Source: Patescibacteria group bacterium
GTDB taxonomy: Bacteria > Patescibacteriota > Minisyncoccia > Phycocordibacterales > WO2-35-19
NCBI GenBank assembly: GCA_038065655.1
Contig: JBBTQO010000009.1
Coordinates: forward strand, 218 to 64,217
Direction of reading: 5' to 3'
Length of the DNA: 64,000 bases
The notes under the pieces are model-generated. The model saw only the letters and a program-made list of their open reading frames with translations, searched no databases and was not told the DNA's origin. Below, piece by piece: positions 27,304 to 47,227 of the stretch; within the stretch, counting starts at the first letter, position 1; every line of letters starts with the position of its first letter. Made by a program: the position numbers and the translations under genes.

Positions 27304-27924
27304 ATGAATATTTTTAATGATTCAAATAGTGCTCAAAAAAAGTTCCAAGGTAAAATTGCTGGTTCGAAAGGGGCTGGATATGCTGAAATTTTTTTGAATA
27401 AGGAAGTAGAGAAGTTTCTCAGGGAAAATATATCTGATAAAAATACAAAAATAATTATTTATACTGATGGTTCGTCGCGTGGTAATCCTGGGCCGGGTGG
27501 TTTTGGAGCGATTATTTTTAGTAGAGAAAAAGTTTTGGAAATTGGTGGTAGAGAAGAGCAAACAACAAATAATAGGATGGAAATGAAAGCGGCGATTGAA
27601 GCTCTGAAAATAATTCCAGAAAATTCTTTTGTTGAGTTGCATGCAGATTCTGAGTATTTAATAAAAGGTATTACGATTTGGATTAAAAATTGGCAGAAAA
27701 ATAATTGGCGCACTAAAGATAAGAGGGAAGTTTTAAACCGCGATTTGTGGGAAGAACTTTTAGCACAAACAGAAAATAAAAATATAGAATGGAAAAAAGT
27801 AGTGGGCCACTCAGGTCACGAGTTTAATGATCGTTGTGATGAGATTGCTACAAGTTTTGCCGATGGCTTGAATGTTGATTTTTATAATGGCTCAGAATCA
27901 GGGTATTTCTTGTTTCATCAATGA
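27304..27924 (+). CDS. rnhA: ribonuclease HI
   Basis: IIYTDGSSRGNPGPGGFGAII...TTNNRMEMKAAIEAL...HADSEYLIKGIT.WI.NWQKNNW...VGHSGHEFNDRCDEIA are the canonical RNase H motifs. Confidence 0.85.
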   Translation: MNIFNDSNSAQKKFQGKIAGSKGAGYAEIFLNKEVEKFLRENISDKNTKIIIYTDGSSRGNPGPGGFGAIIFSREKVLEIGGREEQTTNNRMEMKAAIEALKIIPENSFVELHADSEYLIKGITIWIKNWQKNNWRTKDKREVLNRDLWEELLAQTENKNIEWKKVVGHSGHEFNDRCDEIATSFADGLNVDFYNGSESGYFLFHQ

Positions 27925-29528
27925 TTGCTTTTGTCGTTTCATTTGTTATAGGAATCGTTTTTGAAAAAATTTTTGGTTTGGGTTGGAGCATCGCCTTGCT
28001 CATAATTTTAGTTTCAGTAACTTTAAGGGCAATCCTTTGGGGCAATTCTTCAAGAGTTGCCCTTGGGGAAGAGAGTCAAAGACGCCCTTTGAAAGTTGTT
28101 CCCAAAAGGGCGTCTTTGACTTTCTTTGCGATTAGTTTGGCTTTTTCTCTCGGAATTTTGAGAATGAATTTTGTTAGCACTTCTCCTGATACAAATCTTT
28201 ACAAACTTATCAGCCAAAAAATTTCTTTTGAGGCCACTATTTCCGATGAGCCCGATATAAGAGATACTTCGGTGCGTTACATAGTCAGACCAGACTTTTC
28301 TTTGGAATATGTTTCTGAATGCACGGATATTTTCTTGCTAGAAAATTCCTCGTGCTCGGCTCAGTCAGCCTCGCAAGGCATTCATAAACACATTCCCTCG
28401 AAAAGTCTTGTACTTTTGGTCGCAAATAGATATCCTGAATTTCAATATGGCGACAAAATAAAAGTTTCTGGTAAATTAGATTTGCCAAAAAATTTCGTAG
28501 CAGAAAATGGTACAGAATTTGATTACATTTCATATTTAGCCAAAGATAAAATTCACTTTTTGATTTATCGTCCTCAAATTGAAAAAATAGAGGGTTATGA
28601 TGGTAGCAAAATTATTACCTCACTCTATTTACTTAAAAATAAATTCATAGAAAAAATTTCAGCGGTAGTGCCCGAACCAAACGCCTCTCTTTTGGGAGGA
28701 GTTATTTTTGGCGTCAAACAATCCTTGGGCACAGATTTGTTGGATGATTTTAGAAAAGTGGGGCTGATTCATATTGTAGTTCTTTCTGGCTATAACATTA
28801 CAATTATTGCGGTTGGCATATTTTACCTTACTTCTTTCTTAGGTAGAAGAAAGTTAGGTTTTGTTATAGGCGCAGTTTCTATTTTACTTTTTGCTATTAT
28901 GGTGGGCCTTGGCGCCACTGTAATCCGAGCTTGCATTATGTCTCTTATTTCTATTTTGGCGGTTTATCTCGGTCGACCTTCAGACGCATTACGCTTCCTT
29001 TTTATTGCTGGGTTTTTAATGCTCCTTTGGAATCCTTTACTTCTTTTTTATGACCCATCCTTTCAACTTTCTTTTATGGCCACATTGGGATTAATTTTAT
29101 TTTCGCCTTTTATTTTTTCTTTTATCACTGAGCACAAGTTTGGAAAGTTTATTTCAATCAAATTTGGTTTAAGAGAAATAGTTTCCTCCACATTAGCTGT
29201 TCAATTTTTTGTCTTACCTTTACTCATCAAGATGTCAGGTTTCGTTTCTTTAATTTCATTTTTAGTTAATCCAATTGTTTTACCACTAGTGCCGTGGGCG
29301 ATGGCCTTTGGCGCTTTGACTGGCGCACTCGGAATATTTTCTCAAATGCTTTCTTGGCCGTTTGGTGTCATTTCCTATTTTATTTCTCAAATAATAATTT
29401 ATATCACCGAACTTTCCGCAAATATTCCTCTTGCCACTTTGCAAACCGGATCAATTTCAATCTGGCTAATTTTTGTTTGGTATGTGGGTTATGGAGTTTT
29501 GTATAAAAAATTGTCAGCAGAAAAATAG
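27921..29528 (+). CDS. comEC: ComEC/Rec2 competence channel (membrane domain only)
   Basis: 535 aa polytopic. LLGGVIFGVKQSLGTDLLDDFRKVGLIHIVVLSGYNITII is the ComEC 'Competence' domain core. No MBL domain in this ORF. Confidence 0.7.
   Translation: MIAFVVSFVIGIVFEKIFGLGWSIALLIILVSVTLRAILWGNSSRVALGEESQRRPLKVVPKRASLTFFAISLAFSLGILRMNFVSTSPDTNLYKLISQKISFEATISDEPDIRDTSVRYIVRPDFSLEYVSECTDIFLLENSSCSAQSASQGIHKHIPSKSLVLLVANRYPEFQYGDKIKVSGKLDLPKNFVAENGTEFDYISYLAKDKIHFLIYRPQIEKIEGYDGSKIITSLYLLKNKFIEKISAVVPEPNASLLGGVIFGVKQSLGTDLLDDFRKVGLIHIVVLSGYNITIIAVGIFYLTSFLGRRKLGFVIGAVSILLFAIMVGLGATVIRACIMSLISILAVYLGRPSDALRFLFIAGFLMLLWNPLLLFYDPSFQLSFMATLGLILFSPFIFSFITEHKFGKFISIKFGLREIVSSTLAVQFFVLPLLIKMSGFVSLISFLVNPIVLPLVPWAMAFGALTGALGIFSQMLSWPFGVISYFISQIIIYITELSANIPLATLQTGSISIWLIFVWYVGYGVLYKKLSAEK
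28332..28383 (+). repeat. ~52-nt repeat, copy 2 (inside comEC CDS)
   Basis: ttcttgctagaaaattcctcgtgctcggctcagtcagcctcgcaaggcattc. Confidence 0.5.
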
Positions 29529-29646: not shown

Positions 29647-30243
29647 TTATATAACTTCTGTAAAATTCTGTTCAATAACTTGCCAATTCAAATTTTCAAA
29701 AAAATCTTCAATGTATTGTTTTTTACCACTTGGTTGATAATCAGCAACGAAGGCATGTTCCCACATATCCAAAGCTAGGATAGGGGAGCAATTTTGCAGT
29801 TGGCCGATATGTTGTTCATCTATCCAAGTGTTTAAAAGTCTTTTATCTTTTTTATCCCAATAAAGCATAGCCCAACCTATGCCACGAGTGGTTGCCAAAG
29901 ATTTGAAATATGATAGCCATTTATCAAACGAGCCAAATTCTTCTGTAATGACCTTTTTTAATCCACTCGCATCATCCAAATTTTTAGTACCACCGGAAAG
30001 TGATTCAAAATACACCTCATGATTTCGCATACCGTTATATTCAAAACCGAATCTTCTTTGGGTCTCAGCTATAATATAAACATTAGCTTCTAGGTTAGCA
30101 CTCATTTCTTCGATTTTTTCTAAAACCAGATTGGCATTTTTTACATACCCGGCATAAAGTTTTAAATGTTCTTCAATATTTTTTTCTGAAATACCTTTAA
30201 GTTTTGGAATATTAAACTTTTTTTCTTCGAATTTTTGTGCCAT
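29647..30243 (-). CDS. Fe/Mn superoxide dismutase family protein
   Basis: C-terminal ALDMWEHAFVADYQ...NWQVIEQNF is the SOD signature. The N-terminal HHxKHH box is degenerate (EEHLKLY). Confidence 0.6.
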   Translation of the reverse strand: MAQKFEEKKFNIPKLKGISEKNIEEHLKLYAGYVKNANLVLEKIEEMSANLEANVYIIAETQRRFGFEYNGMRNHEVYFESLSGGTKNLDDASGLKKVITEEFGSFDKWLSYFKSLATTRGIGWAMLYWDKKDKRLLNTWIDEQHIGQLQNCSPILALDMWEHAFVADYQPSGKKQYIEDFFENLNWQVIEQNFTEVI

Positions 30244-30285: not shown

Positions 30286-31203
30286 ATGAGCTTTAAATTA
30301 AAAATTAGGCTGATTATTCTAACTATCTTATTATTTCTAACTATCTTTTCATTTTATATTGCCTGGCGAGAGGAGGACAGAGGTATTTTGACAGTGGTTT
30401 TTTTAAACATTGGTCAGGGCGACGCTACCTTTATTGAAGGGCCAAATGGTAACCAAATTCTTATAGACGGCGGTCCGGGTAAGTCGGTACTTAGAGAATT
30501 GTCTAAAGTTATGCCTTTTTATGACCGAAGTATCGATGTTGTTTTGGCAACTCACGCTGACCAAGACCATGTTGGTGGATTGCCGGATGTTTTAAAAAAG
30601 TATCAAGTAAATATTTTTATGGAAACAGGAGTGGCCGGAGAATCTTCTTCTTATGAAGAACTTGAAAAAATAGTTGGAGAAAAAGAAAGTGCGAGTAGGA
30701 TTAAAAAAATATTAGTCAGAAAGGGTATGGAGATTGATTTGGGAGACGGGGCTATTTTGCAAATTCTTTTTCCCGATAGAGATCCCTCGGGCATGGAGAC
30801 CAATACCGCCTCAATTGTGGCCAGACTTGTTTATGGTGAAAATGAATTCCTACTTACTGGTGACTCGCCACAAGTTATTGAAAAATATCTGGTTTCTTTA
30901 GGTAGTCGAGAGTGTCAAGGGCAACCCTTGAAATGCTCCGGTCCCAAAGGGTTGCCCTTGACACTCGAAAGTGACGTGCTCAAAGCTGGGCATCATGGCT
31001 CAAAAACCTCAACCGGCGCAGTCTTCGTTTCAGCTGTTTCTCCCCAATATGTCGTCATTTCTGCAGGTAAAGACAATCGATACGGCCACCCCAATCAAGA
31101 AGTATTAGATATTGTTTCCAATTTTGGAGCCAAAATATTTCGCACCGACGAGTCGGGCCGCATTATATTCCAAAGCGATGGAGTAAATTTGGAAGTTAAA
31201 TAA
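30286..31203 (+). CDS. MBL-fold metallo-hydrolase, ComEC C-terminal-domain-like, carrying an in-frame palindromic insertion
   Basis: N-terminal TM. HADQDHVGGL (HxHxDH). ...VLKAGHHGSKTS. Residues ...RECQGQPLKCSGPKGLPLTLES are encoded by the 57-nt palindrome at 30910..30966. Confidence 0.7.
   Translation: MSFKLKIRLIILTILLFLTIFSFYIAWREEDRGILTVVFLNIGQGDATFIEGPNGNQILIDGGPGKSVLRELSKVMPFYDRSIDVVLATHADQDHVGGLPDVLKKYQVNIFMETGVAGESSSYEELEKIVGEKESASRIKKILVRKGMEIDLGDGAILQILFPDRDPSGMETNTASIVARLVYGENEFLLTGDSPQVIEKYLVSLGSRECQGQPLKCSGPKGLPLTLESDVLKAGHHGSKTSTGAVFVSAVSPQYVVISAGKDNRYGHPNQEVLDIVSNFGAKIFRTDESGRIIFQSDGVNLEVK
30910..30966 (+). mobile_element. in-frame palindromic mini-insertion element, copy 1
   Basis: Perfect 20-bp arms GAGTGTCAAGGGCAACCCTT / AAGGGTTGCCCTTGACACTC around the loop gaaatgctccggtccca. 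57 nt = 19 codons, inside a CDS. Confidence 0.7.
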
Positions 31204-31267
31204 TAACTCTAAAATGTGTTGTAAAATAAAGCTATTTTGTCATCAACTCAATATTATGCAATAATAC

Positions 31268-31296
31268 TTGACAAATGTATATCTTTTTGCTATACT
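31268..31296 (+). promoter_or_regulatory. consensus sigma70 promoter TTGACA-N17-TATACT (cassette E1)
   Basis: tacTTGACAaatgtatatctttttgcTATACT. Confidence 0.6.
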
Positions 31297-31335
31297 TATA
31301 TCAGATGGGGTTCAAAGAGCCCCTAAGGAGACACA

Positions 31336-31428
31336 ATGAAGATCAGGAAGTTGAAGAAGAATCGACAGGTGCCACCGGCACCGAAACCGATTGCACTTAT
31401 GCTTGCGAACGCCTCCGGTCGAGACTGA
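31336..31428 (+). CDS. 30-aa peptide ORF inside GC-rich transcription unit E1
   Basis: AAGGAG SD 5 nt upstream. MKIRKLKKNRQVPPAPKPIALMLANASGRD. About 150 nt of GC-rich sequence follows before the terminator. Confidence 0.35.
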   Translation: MKIRKLKKNRQVPPAPKPIALMLANASGRD

Positions 31429-31572
31429 CGCCCTGGGCGCCGGCCGACACATTTCACTAGAAAGGAGGTATAGTCCAATGGATTGAACAATTGAGTTGCG
31501 CCAACCCGCGGTACAAGGCACCGTGGTTGCCACAAAGTCCAGTGGTGTATCAGAAACTATGGGCAAAAACTA

Positions 31573-31620
31573 GGGGTCCTGTCGTCATTGAAAACGCAGG
31601 CCCTTTTTGTTTATATTTTT
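31573..31620 (+). terminator. intrinsic terminator of E1
   Basis: AGGGGTCCTG...CAGGCCCT stem followed by TTTTTGTTTATATTTTT. Confidence 0.5.
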
Positions 31621-31661
31621 ACTCTTGTCAAAAATTTTAATATTTTATATAATTTGAATAT

Positions 31662-32273
31662 ATGGAAGGTGTTCAAGGAGAATCAATAGAAGAATCAGGG
31701 GGATATAAACTTTGGAGACAGTCTGATAGCTGTATTGCTCGCTTCTTTCTTAGTGGCGACAAGAATAATCCGCCCGAACTCGAAGATGAATTATTTGAAG
31801 AAATAGTACGTAAAGGTCCAGATGAGTATGCATTGTCAGTGAGAGCATGTTCTCTAGGAGAACTAAAAGAGAACCCACCAAATGATTTAGTTATAGATTG
31901 GAAATACGCAAAGGACTACAATCTATATTTTGATGAGAAAAATTGTAGATGGATTTATTGGATTGAGGGGAATATTACTAATCCAGATCATGACCTGATT
32001 CAACAGGGAATAGAAAAAAGGAGGCAAAAGGGAATAACTCACTCAGCGTTTAGGTTTTTTTTAAAAAATCCAAAAAAATATATTGATAATTTTACTACCA
32101 AAAATTCATACTGCCCTTTTACAAATAAAGAGATAGGATTTATTGAAAAAGCAAGAGAATACTCAAGACATGGAGAATACGAATCTGAAGATGGTGGAGT
32201 TAGGCATGATTATGAATCACTGAAATGTCCTTGTGGTTGTGGCAAAAGTGCAGAAGAAATTATAAATGAATAA
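31662..32273 (+). CDS. hypothetical protein
   Basis: 203 aa, no recognisable family. C-terminal CPFT...CPCGCGKS. TTGTCA-N17-TATAAT promoter whose -10 ends 8 nt before the ATG (leaderless-like). Confidence 0.45.
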   Translation: MEGVQGESIEESGGYKLWRQSDSCIARFFLSGDKNNPPELEDELFEEIVRKGPDEYALSVRACSLGELKENPPNDLVIDWKYAKDYNLYFDEKNCRWIYWIEGNITNPDHDLIQQGIEKRRQKGITHSAFRFFLKNPKKYIDNFTTKNSYCPFTNKEIGFIEKAREYSRHGEYESEDGGVRHDYESLKCPCGCGKSAEEIINE

Positions 32274-32289
32274 TATATAAAAATTTTTC

Positions 32290-32375
32290 TATACACTAAA
32301 TAATCTTTGCTTTTTTGAGGGTGGCGTAGGCGCCGTTTTTTTGGATGGTTTTGAGTTTAACCGTATTGTTTTTAC
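32290..32375 (-). pseudogene. fragment duplicating the 3' end of rpmB (L28)
   Basis: The minus frame encodes ...KNNTVKLKTIQKNGAYATLKKAKII*. Plus-strand 32308..32353 is identical to 32943..32988 (the rpmB 3' end). Confidence 0.6.
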
Positions 32376-32473: not shown

Positions 32474-32502
32474 TTGACAAGAAAAGCATAGTATGCTATA
32501 CT
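32474..32502 (+). promoter_or_regulatory. consensus sigma70 promoter TTGACA-N17-TATACT (cassette E2)
   Basis: tgcTTGACAagaaaagcatagtatgcTATACT. Confidence 0.6.
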
Positions 32503-32564
32503 TATGTAAGATAGTACTCCCAGGCTTATGTCGGGAGGTATAAAGCAAAAAAAAGGAGCCAGTC

Positions 32565-32846
32565 ATGTATAGAGTAAGATTTGAACTGAATTTCCATTCC
32601 GCTGACACAACGGAGTGGCAGGATTTCATCAAGGCCGGGGCTGGTCGGATACGGACTCGGTGCGTGGGGTGGAGTGTAGATTCTCCTCAAGATAAGTTTG
32701 AAATATGGGAGGCTAGGTCTTCCAGACCATTTGTGATCATCATTAACACTCGTGATCACGAGGGTTTCGTCAGGACTGAAAAGGTCCTCGTGGCCACCTC
32801 GGAAAGGTGGCAAGACACTCCAGTCGAACACTGGAGAAAGTTGTAA
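32565..32846 (+). CDS. hypothetical 93-aa protein (cassette E2)
   Basis: AAGGAG SD 7 nt upstream. MYRVRFELNFHSADTTEWQDFIKAGAGRIRTRCVGW.... G+C-richer than its flanks. Terminator at 32855..32900. Confidence 0.5.
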   Translation: MYRVRFELNFHSADTTEWQDFIKAGAGRIRTRCVGWSVDSPQDKFEIWEARSSRPFVIIINTRDHEGFVRTEKVLVATSERWQDTPVEHWRKL

Positions 32847-32854
32847 GAGTTTTA

Positions 32855-32900
32855 GGGCGTCGTGTGGGTTCAAATCCTACCGACGCTCTTTCTTTTTATT
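32855..32900 (+). terminator. intrinsic terminator of E2 with T-arm-like loop
   Basis: GGGCGTCG-tgtGGGTTCAAATCCtac-CGACGCTC followed by TTTCTTTTTATT. Confidence 0.55.
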
Positions 32901-32919: not shown

Positions 32920-33162
32920 TTATATAACTCCAGCTTTTTTGAGGGTGGCGTAGGCGCCGTTTTTTTGGATGGTTTTGATGGCTCGAGTAGAGAGAGTCAG
33001 AGTAAAAGATTTGTTGAGTTCGGGCACGAAAATTTTCTTTTTTTGTAAATTGGCAAATTTCCTTGTATTGCCACAAGGATTAAACTGGGTGGCGCGGGTT
33101 CGGTTTGAATAGGAACCGCCCATCTGAGATGATTTTTTTGTAATTGCACATTCTTTAGCCAT
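32920..33162 (-). CDS. rpmB: 50S ribosomal protein L28
   Basis: MAKECAITKKSSQMGGSYSNRTRATQFNPCGNTRKFANLQKKKIFVPELNKSFTLTLSTRAIKTIQK follows the L28 pattern. Confidence 0.8.
   Translation of the reverse strand: MAKECAITKKSSQMGGSYSNRTRATQFNPCGNTRKFANLQKKKIFVPELNKSFTLTLSTRAIKTIQKNGAYATLKKAGVI
32943..32988 (+). repeat. direct repeat partner of 32308..32353 (3' end of rpmB)
   Basis: 46 nt identical. Confidence 0.65.
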
Positions 33163-46313: not shown

Positions 46314-46786
46314 ATTTGTGGAGATGCCGATATTGAAACCGGATGCAAATAAGTTTTGATAATGCTTCTACGCGATGTAGTTAATTTTATTCTGTTTTGC
46401 AACAGAAATTTGATATTTGTTCTAAAAAATTAACAAAACAAACAAATATCTAGTTTCTTATTTCAAAAACAAGCCGAAACATTTCTTGTTTTTAAAGTCC
46501 GAAGTTATTACAATTCCTTTCTCTAACAGACTTCAAGAGGGAACCGTCGCTTAGGGGAACTTAAAATTAAGTTCTAACGTAAGCGAAAGCAAAATCGTTG
46601 ACTCCAAAATATGGAGAAACAACAGACTTAGCTTGTGCAAGAATGTTTTTAGCATTTATGCTTTGGAAACTTTTTAAGAGTTTTTCCAGCTCTATCGCGC
46701 GCATTGTCAAAGAATCTCATCTGTCTAAACCTGTCATCCCCCTAAAACATTTTATGAAATAAAATATTTTGGGCGAACTTTTGGTT

Positions 46787-47227
46787 TTAATTTTTTATCT
46801 CTCGCCTTATCTCTCGCTCAACATCACGCTTTTTAATAGTCTCGCGTTTGTCGTATTTTTTCTTACCACGGACAATAGCAATCTCTAATTTTAGCTTCCT
46901 ACCCTTATTATACACCGAAAGGGGTACGATCGTCAACCCCTTTTGATTTTCTGACTTAGTTAGGTCAGTTATTTCTTTTTTAGTCAAAAGTAGACGGCGG
47001 TTTCGTAAAGGATTGTAATCATTTGGGGTGTTGGCTGGCTGATAGGGAGGAATCTGCATATTTATCACAAAGGCTTCATTCCCTCGCAAAGTAATATGGG
47101 CGCCTTCCAAAGAGCCCTGACCCTTTTTTAATGATTTAACTTCAAAACCAAGTAATTCTATACCCGCCTCGGTTTTTTCGAGTATTTCATAATTAAAATG
47201 TGCTTTTTTGTTCTGTATTAAAGGCAT
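46787..47227 (-). CDS. smpB: SsrA-binding protein
   Basis: NKKAHFNYEILEKTEAGIELLGFEVKSLK...AHITLRGNEAFVINMQIPPY are SmpB signatures. Confidence 0.9.
   Translation of the reverse strand: MPLIQNKKAHFNYEILEKTEAGIELLGFEVKSLKKGQGSLEGAHITLRGNEAFVINMQIPPYQPANTPNDYNPLRNRRLLLTKKEITDLTKSENQKGLTIVPLSVYNKGRKLKLEIAIVRGKKKYDKRETIKKRDVEREIRREIKN

Follow-up and report, generated by a model that had tools for sequence, protein, structure and literature searches.

Introduction

Bacteria make small proteins of ≤50 residues (e.g., the cytoplasmic MntS and SgrT of Escherichia coli) from unannotated short open reading frames (sORFs), and genes this short fall under the cut-offs of gene callers. Short open reading frames (ORFs) are found in dual-function small RNAs (sRNAs) as well, as in SgrS/SgrT, RNAIII/delta-haemolysin and SR1/SR1P. 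Here we describe E1, a putative transcription unit at positions 31268-31612 (plus strand, promoter to terminator) of a 64,000-nucleotide stretch of contig JBBTQO010000009.1 from a Patescibacteria group bacterium (GenBank assembly GCA_038065655.1). This whole stretch, 64 kb in length, is referred to as the window, and coordinates are those of the window unless another contig is named. E1 is probably an unannotated gene for a strongly basic protein of 29-31 residues with a structured and presumably stabilised mRNA, carried on a dispensable cassette.

Like MntS and SgrT, E1 has a short ORF that stands alone, is equipped with a ribosome-binding site (RBS), is missed by gene callers, is conserved only among close relatives and is recognisable from its in-frame pattern of substitutions. 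Unlike the known small proteins, its product is without sequence similarity to others and is strongly basic with a VPPAPKP segment; the mRNA is much GC-richer than the host genome and has conserved hairpins, and the whole resides on a dispensable cassette. The kind of gene, a small ORF missed by annotation, is a known one, and the family is new. With the dual-function sRNAs E1 would share a transcript of ~300 nt, a short ORF, conserved and apparently structured noncoding segments and an intrinsic terminator. It differs from them in that no base-pairing target or seed was identified, and its longest noncoding part is the least conserved.

The type I toxin mRNAs hok, tisB, fst and aapA1 combine a tiny ORF, a highly structured mRNA and a strain-variable distribution (PMC2887945, PMC8594479). 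E1 resembles these mRNAs in its tiny ORF on a structured mRNA and in its patchy distribution. It departs from them in a hydrophilic product with no membrane helix, an antisense promoter that was looked for and not detected, a near-consensus promoter and an RBS that is not consistently sequestered. The RNAs collected in Rfam (tmRNA, RNase P RNA, 6S RNA, signal recognition particle (SRP) RNA and the large noncoding RNAs (ncRNAs)) are like E1 in being ~300-nt GC-rich islands with promoter and terminator in an AT-rich genome; unlike them, three copies of E1 gave no match at E ≤10 other than at chance level, and its RNase P-like AAAGUCC is not conserved.

Results and Discussion

Homologues of E1

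Relatives were sought at 80 genome loci around relatives of the gene directly upstream of E1, which encodes the metallo-beta-lactamase domain of ComEC (ComEC-C); on the basis of these loci, the window itself belongs to Zambryskibacteria-like Patescibacteria. One of the 80 loci (L003) carries E1, at the same position, and the other 79 do not. A degenerate DNA pattern for KNRQVPPAP, run over a metagenome collection, gave four true matches (L086, L084, L081, L083), with L086 counted as the same contig as L003 (both are 15,681 nt long and have the same nhmmer score). Contigs encoding close ComEC-C relatives added L092/L093 and L099, and the same look-up recovered, from groundwater assemblies of Hainich, the population to which the window belongs. 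There are five distinct E1 variants (window, L003, L084, L092 and L099), all of them right after the comEC metallo-beta-lactamase-domain gene in Zambryskibacteria-like genomes; E1 is thus confined to some of the Zambryskibacteria of groundwater. An earlier note on this DNA, made from the letters of the window, had named an Infernal hit to a known RNA family and an absence of homologous loci elsewhere as findings that would speak against the element; no Rfam family matches (see below), and such loci exist. Neither further look-ups nor a profile search over all 109 loci and the full window gave another copy; E1 is single copy in the window, and two conserved E1 DNA patterns had no match in a viral contig collection.

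Coding signature of the short ORF

The products of the homologues have 29-31 residues with common start and stop, the ATG and TGA being invariant over the five variants and the GGAG core of the Shine-Dalgarno sequence unchanged in 5/5. The predicted peptides are MKIRKLKKNRQVPPAPKPIALMLANASGRD in the window, MKKIRPLRKNRTVPPAPKPIALMLANASGRD in L099, MKIKLKKNRQVPPAPKPMNILLANISGRD in L003, MKVRKLRKNRQVPPAPKPMKILLANISDRD in L084 and MKIRKLRKNRRVPPAPKPMNILLANIVRD in L092. All three insertions or deletions (indels) in the ORF are exactly 3 nt long, whereas those in the adjacent 5' untranslated region (UTR) and just past the stop are of 1-2 nt; the other indels outside the ORF are large. The ratio of nonsynonymous to synonymous differences per site (pN/pS) over all pairs is 0.36 in the ORF frame; the two remaining frames of the same alignment give 1.04 and 1.47, and the pairwise ratio of nonsynonymous to synonymous substitution rates (dN/dS) is 0.16-0.52. 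Some synonymous switches even need specific changes, such as AGG/CGG (Arg) and TTG/CTT (Leu). A conserved start, stop and RBS, indels of 3 nt and a synonymous excess in one frame only are the marks of a protein-coding small ORF. The alignment shows purifying selection on the amino-acid sequence, within a conserved design of the putative transcription unit, and we infer that E1 is transcribed and translated.

Two other readings of the strand pair were tried and rejected. A rival frame from a near-leaderless ATG at 31305 stops after three codons in L092 and is shifted in L084, and the frames of two antisense ORFs (84 and 70 residues) are not kept between homologues. A stop-codon read-through or a role similar to a selenocysteine insertion sequence (SECIS) for the hairpin at the stop codon was likewise discarded, as 1-nt indels right after the TGA shift the downstream frame between homologues.

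Transcription signals

The E1 promoter scores 11/12 and has in addition an extended -10 element (TG at 31288-31289 within the spacer), which makes it the top site of the region in the promoter scan. The pattern TTGACA-N14-TGN-TATAMT has two matches in 64 kb (0.07 expected), namely this promoter and that of a cassette at 32474. The same promoter is present in L003, L092 and L099. Mean pairwise identity among the homologues is 0.92 in the promoter, 0.86 in the 5' UTR, 0.81 in the ORF and 0.78 in the terminator. With a transcription start that we place at ~31303, the transcript (31303-31612) would have a GC content of 52%, compared with 37% for the window. The earlier note had correctly read a perfect TTGACA-17-TATACT promoter, an AAGGAG Shine-Dalgarno sequence with a 30-residue ORF, and a GC-rich unit ending in a terminator; its estimate of about 150 nt past the stop codon was too short, the actual stretch being ~184 nt. 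The simple terminator scan that we used missed the E1 terminator in the window and detected the homologous ones in L092, L003 and L099.

The inverted repeat in front of the -35 hexamer is kept in 4/5 copies, L084 having one substitution (ATTACGCAATAAT). It is possibly an UP element or an operator to which a regulator would bind. A weak divergent promoter-like site on the minus strand (TATACA-17-CATAAT) overlaps this repeat in 4/5 copies.

Properties of the peptide and a possible mode of action

The net charge of the E1 peptides lies between +6 and +8, and their grand average of hydropathy (GRAVY) is -0.59 to -0.87. No apolar run exceeds 6 residues and the best 15-residue Kyte-Doolittle window does not exceed 0.8 (0.77), i.e., there is no membrane segment. 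The peptide has an N-terminal Lys/Arg cluster and the invariant VPPAPKP segment; it contains no Cys and is not Ser/Thr-rich. In the mechanism that we favour, RNA polymerase would start near 31303, and the 5' stem-loop and the GC-rich hairpins would make the mRNA more stable and adjust how it is translated. The product would be a cytoplasmic peptide of 29-31 residues with a short C-terminal helix, and this basic peptide would bind a polyanionic partner, which could be RNA, the ribosome or DNA.

E1 adds a candidate small-protein family to the Patescibacteria, conserved under selection in several uncultivated groundwater lineages. The reduced genomes of Patescibacteria are thought to rely on interaction with a host and on a small number of regulators. 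One could imagine E1 as a micro-cassette of these ultra-small bacteria in which the basic Pro-containing peptide acts together with the hairpins of the mRNA that encodes it, perhaps as a self-regulating peptide directed at ribosomes or RNA that would serve to exclude phages, to cause addiction or to compete with other strains, and would have spread by recombination at a hotspot between comEC and rpmB; we consider this idea speculative and improbable. The practical importance of E1 is modest until a function is shown, and the element offers a possible entry point to the small proteins and the cassette exchange of Patescibacteria.

E1 as a dispensable cassette

E1 is a dispensable, self-contained accessory cassette of ~450 bp. 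It is dispensable because there are contigs with near-identical flanking genes that do not have it, and because an IS30-like element cuts off its promoter elsewhere. Thus, the ComEC-C of L094 and L095 is ~100% identical to that of L092, yet rpmB abuts it and the ~450 bp from promoter to terminator are absent (L094 and L095 come from samples of the Joint Genome Institute (JGI) with neighbouring accession numbers). L090, L091, L096, L097, L107, L108 and L109 are also without E1. In L081 and L083, two independent metagenome contigs that are identical in sequence to L003 from the 5' hairpin on, an IS30-like transposase gene replaces everything upstream, and the insertion separates E1 from its promoter within a few bases of the probable start site.

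Recombination seems to be how lineages acquire and lose the cassette. E1 comes in two peptide types, which are discordant with the relationships of ComEC-C: at a dN of 0.09, the ORFs of the window and L099, both of the IALMLANA type, are one of the two most similar pairs, whereas their ComEC-C proteins are only 74% identical and the genes for these, with a synonymous divergence (dS) of 1.78, are among the most distant, and the ComEC-C of L099 is 80% identical to those of L003 and L084. In other relatives, the gap between the ComEC-C gene and rpmB holds unrelated cassettes, many of which have the same consensus promoter design. This gap is a hotspot of differing, strongly promoted cassettes in close relatives. 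As so many unrelated cassettes use that design, a common promoter was not accepted as a sign that E1 is homologous to the other cassettes of the hotspot.

Table 1. Features of E1 and its surroundings (RNA motifs are written with U).
Feature	Position	Strand	Remarks
ComEC metallo-beta-lactamase-domain gene (ComEC-C)	30286-31203	+	directly 5' of E1
Inverted repeat ATTAT-GCA-ATAAT	31253-31265	+	directly 5' of the -35 hexamer; read from the sequence
-35/-10 promoter	31268-31296	+	sigma-70-type; TTGACA 31268-31273, 17-nt spacer, TATACT 31291-31296
5' stem-loop GGGGUUC-AAA-GAGCCCC	31307-31323	+	~4 nt past the inferred start; from folds
Shine-Dalgarno sequence AAGGAG	31325-31330	+	5 nt 5' of the ATG
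30-codon ORF	31336-31428	+	ATG 31336, TGA 31426-31428; predicted product MKIRKLKKNRQVPPAPKPIALMLANASGRD
Intra-ORF hairpin GGUGCC-ACC-GGCACC	31368-31382	+	encodes V-P-P-A-P; from folds
Irregular GC-rich hairpin around the stop codon, GUCG.G.CUG.CGCC-loop-GGCG.CGG.CGAC	31418-31448	+	from folds
Variable 3' UTR	31449-31572	+	hairpins 31506-31526 and 31529-31546, common to window, L092 and L003
Intrinsic terminator	31573-31612	+	bulged GC stem 31573-31603, then tail TTTTTGTTT / UUUUUGUUU; seen in folds
203-residue ORF	31662-32273	+	own promoter TTGTCA-17-TATAAT 31625-31653
Second GC-rich cassette	32474-32900	+	promoter 32474-32502, 5' stem-loop, RBS, 93-residue ORF 32565-32846
IS30-like transposase gene, 316 residues	L081 8-958	-	junction near 1020; also in L083; named by eye, no family search

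Evidence against a small-protein gene

A number of observations weigh against E1 as a small-protein gene. The coding analysis is based on five sequences, one of which (L084) is cut by the contig end. The dS of the ORF is 0.16-1.08, compared with 0.86-2.4 for the flanking gene; a dS this low would fit either a constraint at the RNA level or a recent horizontal spread. The 32 noncoding nucleotides past the stop codon have an identity of 0.90, higher than the ORF itself; nucleotide-level constraints must therefore act too, and the RNA may have its own function. The GC content at third codon positions (GC3) is 0.61 in the ORF, whereas the flanking gene has 0.35; such a GC3 is unusual in a gene of this host. 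In a phmmer search, the peptide had no homologue among 1.84 billion representative proteins (from collections representing 15 billion predicted proteins). A single-sequence AlphaFold model, which is of low evidential value, has a predicted local distance difference test score (pLDDT) of 80 with one short helix at residues 19-26. Finally, as the peptide has no homologue in the protein collections, Pfam, NCBIfam or PADLOC, it is from composition that we argue when the net charge is taken to suggest binding to a polyanionic partner.

The lack of homologues extends to a concatenated query of two peptide variants, which had no protein match, and to an exact look-up, according to which none of the collections searched lists the peptide as a called gene. 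Pfam, PADLOC and NCBIfam gave no match to the peptide, and a literature search gave nothing on the E1 element. The E1 peptide is, on these comparisons, a putative new small-protein family of narrow distribution.

Alternative explanations

The main rival is a dual-function RNA, in which the mRNA of the peptide would also be regulatory or protein-binding through its hairpins (the 5', intra-ORF and stop-codon hairpins and a CUCAC-loop-GUGAG hairpin). The earlier note had suggested such a role as possible; we hold it to be unlikely, though worth serious consideration. The high identity past the stop codon, above that of the ORF, is in its favour, and so is the dS of E1 below that of the flanking gene. 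However, the low dS could also be due to recent horizontal spread, and the divergences of E1 and ComEC-C disagree.

The hairpins themselves speak for both sides. The 5' stem is kept in 5/5 homologues, with AAA, UGA or AGA as loop and a change from U-G to C-G in two of them, and would have a stabilising role. The four-fold degenerate sites of the intra-ORF hairpin are unchanged in 4/5 homologues; the L092 copy has no inner pair but has acquired a G-C pair on the outside, so that 6 bp are retained. A CUCUCAC-loop-GUGAGRG hairpin is found in 4/5 homologues, with one pair seen as U-A, U-G and C-G, but the window copy is without its 3' arm; the region of the CACUAGAA hairpin has a mean pairwise identity of 0.76. 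Both hairpins of the variable 3' UTR stay paired despite changes on both sides: positions 3 and 5 of hairpin 31506-31526 are altered in this way (three sequences only), and the stem of hairpin 31529-31546 is wholly swapped in L003, from GCCAC/GUGGU to UGUGA/UCACA (again three sequences only). L099, however, has neither of them. The stop-codon hairpin has 1-nt indels in its loop and invariant stems, i.e., no covariation support. In the conserved 5' half, RNAalifold found no pair changed on both sides, and the covariation term (+2.9) is unfavourable. The folding energy of the whole transcript is ordinary for its composition (z = -1.6 for the plus and -1.8 for the minus strand), and neither a target nor a partner of the RNA was identified. 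Sequestration of the RBS by the UCUCC of codons 26-27, as predicted by the folds, was also considered and rejected, since it is not conserved in L092; the RBS is not consistently sequestered across the homologues.

A purely noncoding structured RNA, on which the 30-codon ORF would be incidental, is very unlikely. It would account for a GC-rich island with several stable hairpins in an AT-rich genome, as well as for an ORF that gene callers never called and a peptide that is absent from protein collections. However, it leaves the in-frame indels and the frame-specific pN/pS without explanation, together with the conservation of RBS, ATG and TGA next to a 3' domain that is variable or deleted. 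A solely noncoding role is disfavoured because the middle of the 3' UTR is variable and largely missing in one homologue, and because the motifs singled out in the earlier note are not conserved. In fact, the middle 3' UTR has a mean identity of 0.56 and is 45% gapped, with ~95 nt absent in L099 and unrelated inserts of ~40 nt in L003 and L092. AAAGTCC (AAAGUCC in the RNA) of the window corresponds to AAAACCC in L003 and to AAATCC in L092, L099 has no counterpart of it, and AAAGGAGG is not conserved either (AAAGGAGGTATAGTCC).

The known RNA families give the same picture. Rfam 15 had no match on 31150-31750, either at the gathering threshold or at E ≤10, and the copies of L003 and L092 had only chance-level ones (E of at least 4), so that the element remains without a known family, as had been noted by eye. 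The exclusion of RNase P RNA also stands: neither the conserved region CR-I (GAGGAAAGUCC) nor CR-V with a matching P4 was found, and AAAGUCC is not conserved. The statement that no ssrA was visible turned out to be wrong, as the minus strand encodes a tmRNA at 46316-46741 (match to Rfam RF00023 with 66 bits and E = 1.4e-23). This gene adjoins a 146-residue ORF (46787-47227, minus strand), which is probably smpB. Of the two products that had been proposed for E1, the peptide is the better supported one (frame-specific substitutions, indels, five homologues), and a structured ncRNA of ~350 nt finds weak support. E1 thus cautions against taking every GC-rich island of an AT-rich genome for a structural RNA.

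A type I-like toxin or addiction module, in which a harmful peptide would be restrained by an antisense RNA or by the structure of its mRNA, would explain both the patchiness of E1 and the knock-out of its promoter by an insertion sequence, but we regard it as highly improbable. The structured mRNA with its 5' stem-loop and very small ORF would suit such a module, the element is polymorphic for presence and absence, and the IS30-like insertion lies exactly between promoter and transcript (L081, L083). The intra-ORF hairpin and its T-run, moreover, read as a minus-strand terminator in three variants and could end an antisense RNA. Nevertheless, the peptide is hydrophilic (GRAVY ~-0.6), and its best 15-residue hydropathy window of ≤0.8 compares with 2.4-3.2 for type I toxins on the same window length. 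Inside or downstream of E1, no conserved minus-strand promoter was found in four copies (weak promoters would escape the scan). Furthermore, such a toxin would be expressed from a near-consensus promoter through an RBS that is exposed, E1 is single copy in the window, and PADLOC gave no match. A type I toxin-antitoxin arrangement, one of the options of the earlier note, does not fit the hydrophilic peptide, and no antisense promoter was detected for it, while the insertion-sequence knock-out, the patchiness and the minus-strand hairpin still speak in its favour. The type III option of the note finds no tandem RNA repeats by eye (no dedicated repeat finder was run), no toxin gene and no conserved downstream gene.

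A leader peptide with an attenuator, or the precursor of a ribosomally synthesised and post-translationally modified peptide (RiPP), acting on the neighbouring genes is extremely unlikely: the order of short ORF, structured RNA and terminator would suit an attenuator, and the VPPAP segment could slow ribosomes, but the gene 3' of E1 differs in every lineage (a convergent rpmB in L003 and L092, a 451-residue FG-GAP protein in L099, the 203-residue ORF with its own promoter in the window), and the RiPP idea of the earlier note fails for want of a Cys- or Ser/Thr-rich core and of any co-occurring biosynthetic, transport or protease gene, the housekeeping neighbours being the same with or without E1 and a nearby M50 peptidase gene being present regardless of it.

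Surroundings of E1

Read on the minus strand, the intra-ORF hairpin (window 31363-31382; L003 5012-5029; L099 3447-3463) is followed by a T-rich run and scores as an intrinsic terminator. The T-rich run is the complement of Lys/Asn codons. This hairpin could halt antisense read-through from rpmB.

The 203-residue ORF is missing from the other E1-bearing lineages, and other relatives have different ORFs there (of 217 residues in L088 and L109, of 158 in L107 and of 451 in L099). The second GC-rich cassette, which is absent from L003, L092 and L099, has a perfect TTGACA-N14-TGC-TATACT promoter, and the GC3 of its 93-residue ORF is 0.53. A match to a tRNA-like T-arm and acceptor at 32856-32888 was considered as a second RNA gene and dismissed, as it is the terminator hairpin of this cassette. 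Pfam, NCBIfam and PADLOC gave no match for the neighbouring 203-, 93- and 217-residue ORFs.

The 3' end of rpmB (GCTTTTTTGAGGGTGGCGTAGGCGCCGTTTTTTTGGAT) is duplicated in the window (~32300-32345 and ~32934-32970), and its plus-strand reading is an intrinsic terminator. Of the two copies, the upstream one lies behind the 203-residue ORF and runs into a frameshifted rpmB fragment. This duplication suggests that recombination at the rpmB end was the way in for cassettes. No integrase was found among the called neighbour genes, and inspection of the junctions by eye showed no GTTRRRY/RYYYAAC pair of an integron attC site (no formal search for attC was made).

The comEC gene itself is split: the part with the DUF4131 and Competence domains (27921-29528, plus strand) and ComEC-C are separate genes, and an Fe/Mn superoxide dismutase gene (29647-30243, minus strand) is located between them. 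This layout is conserved in all close relatives examined.

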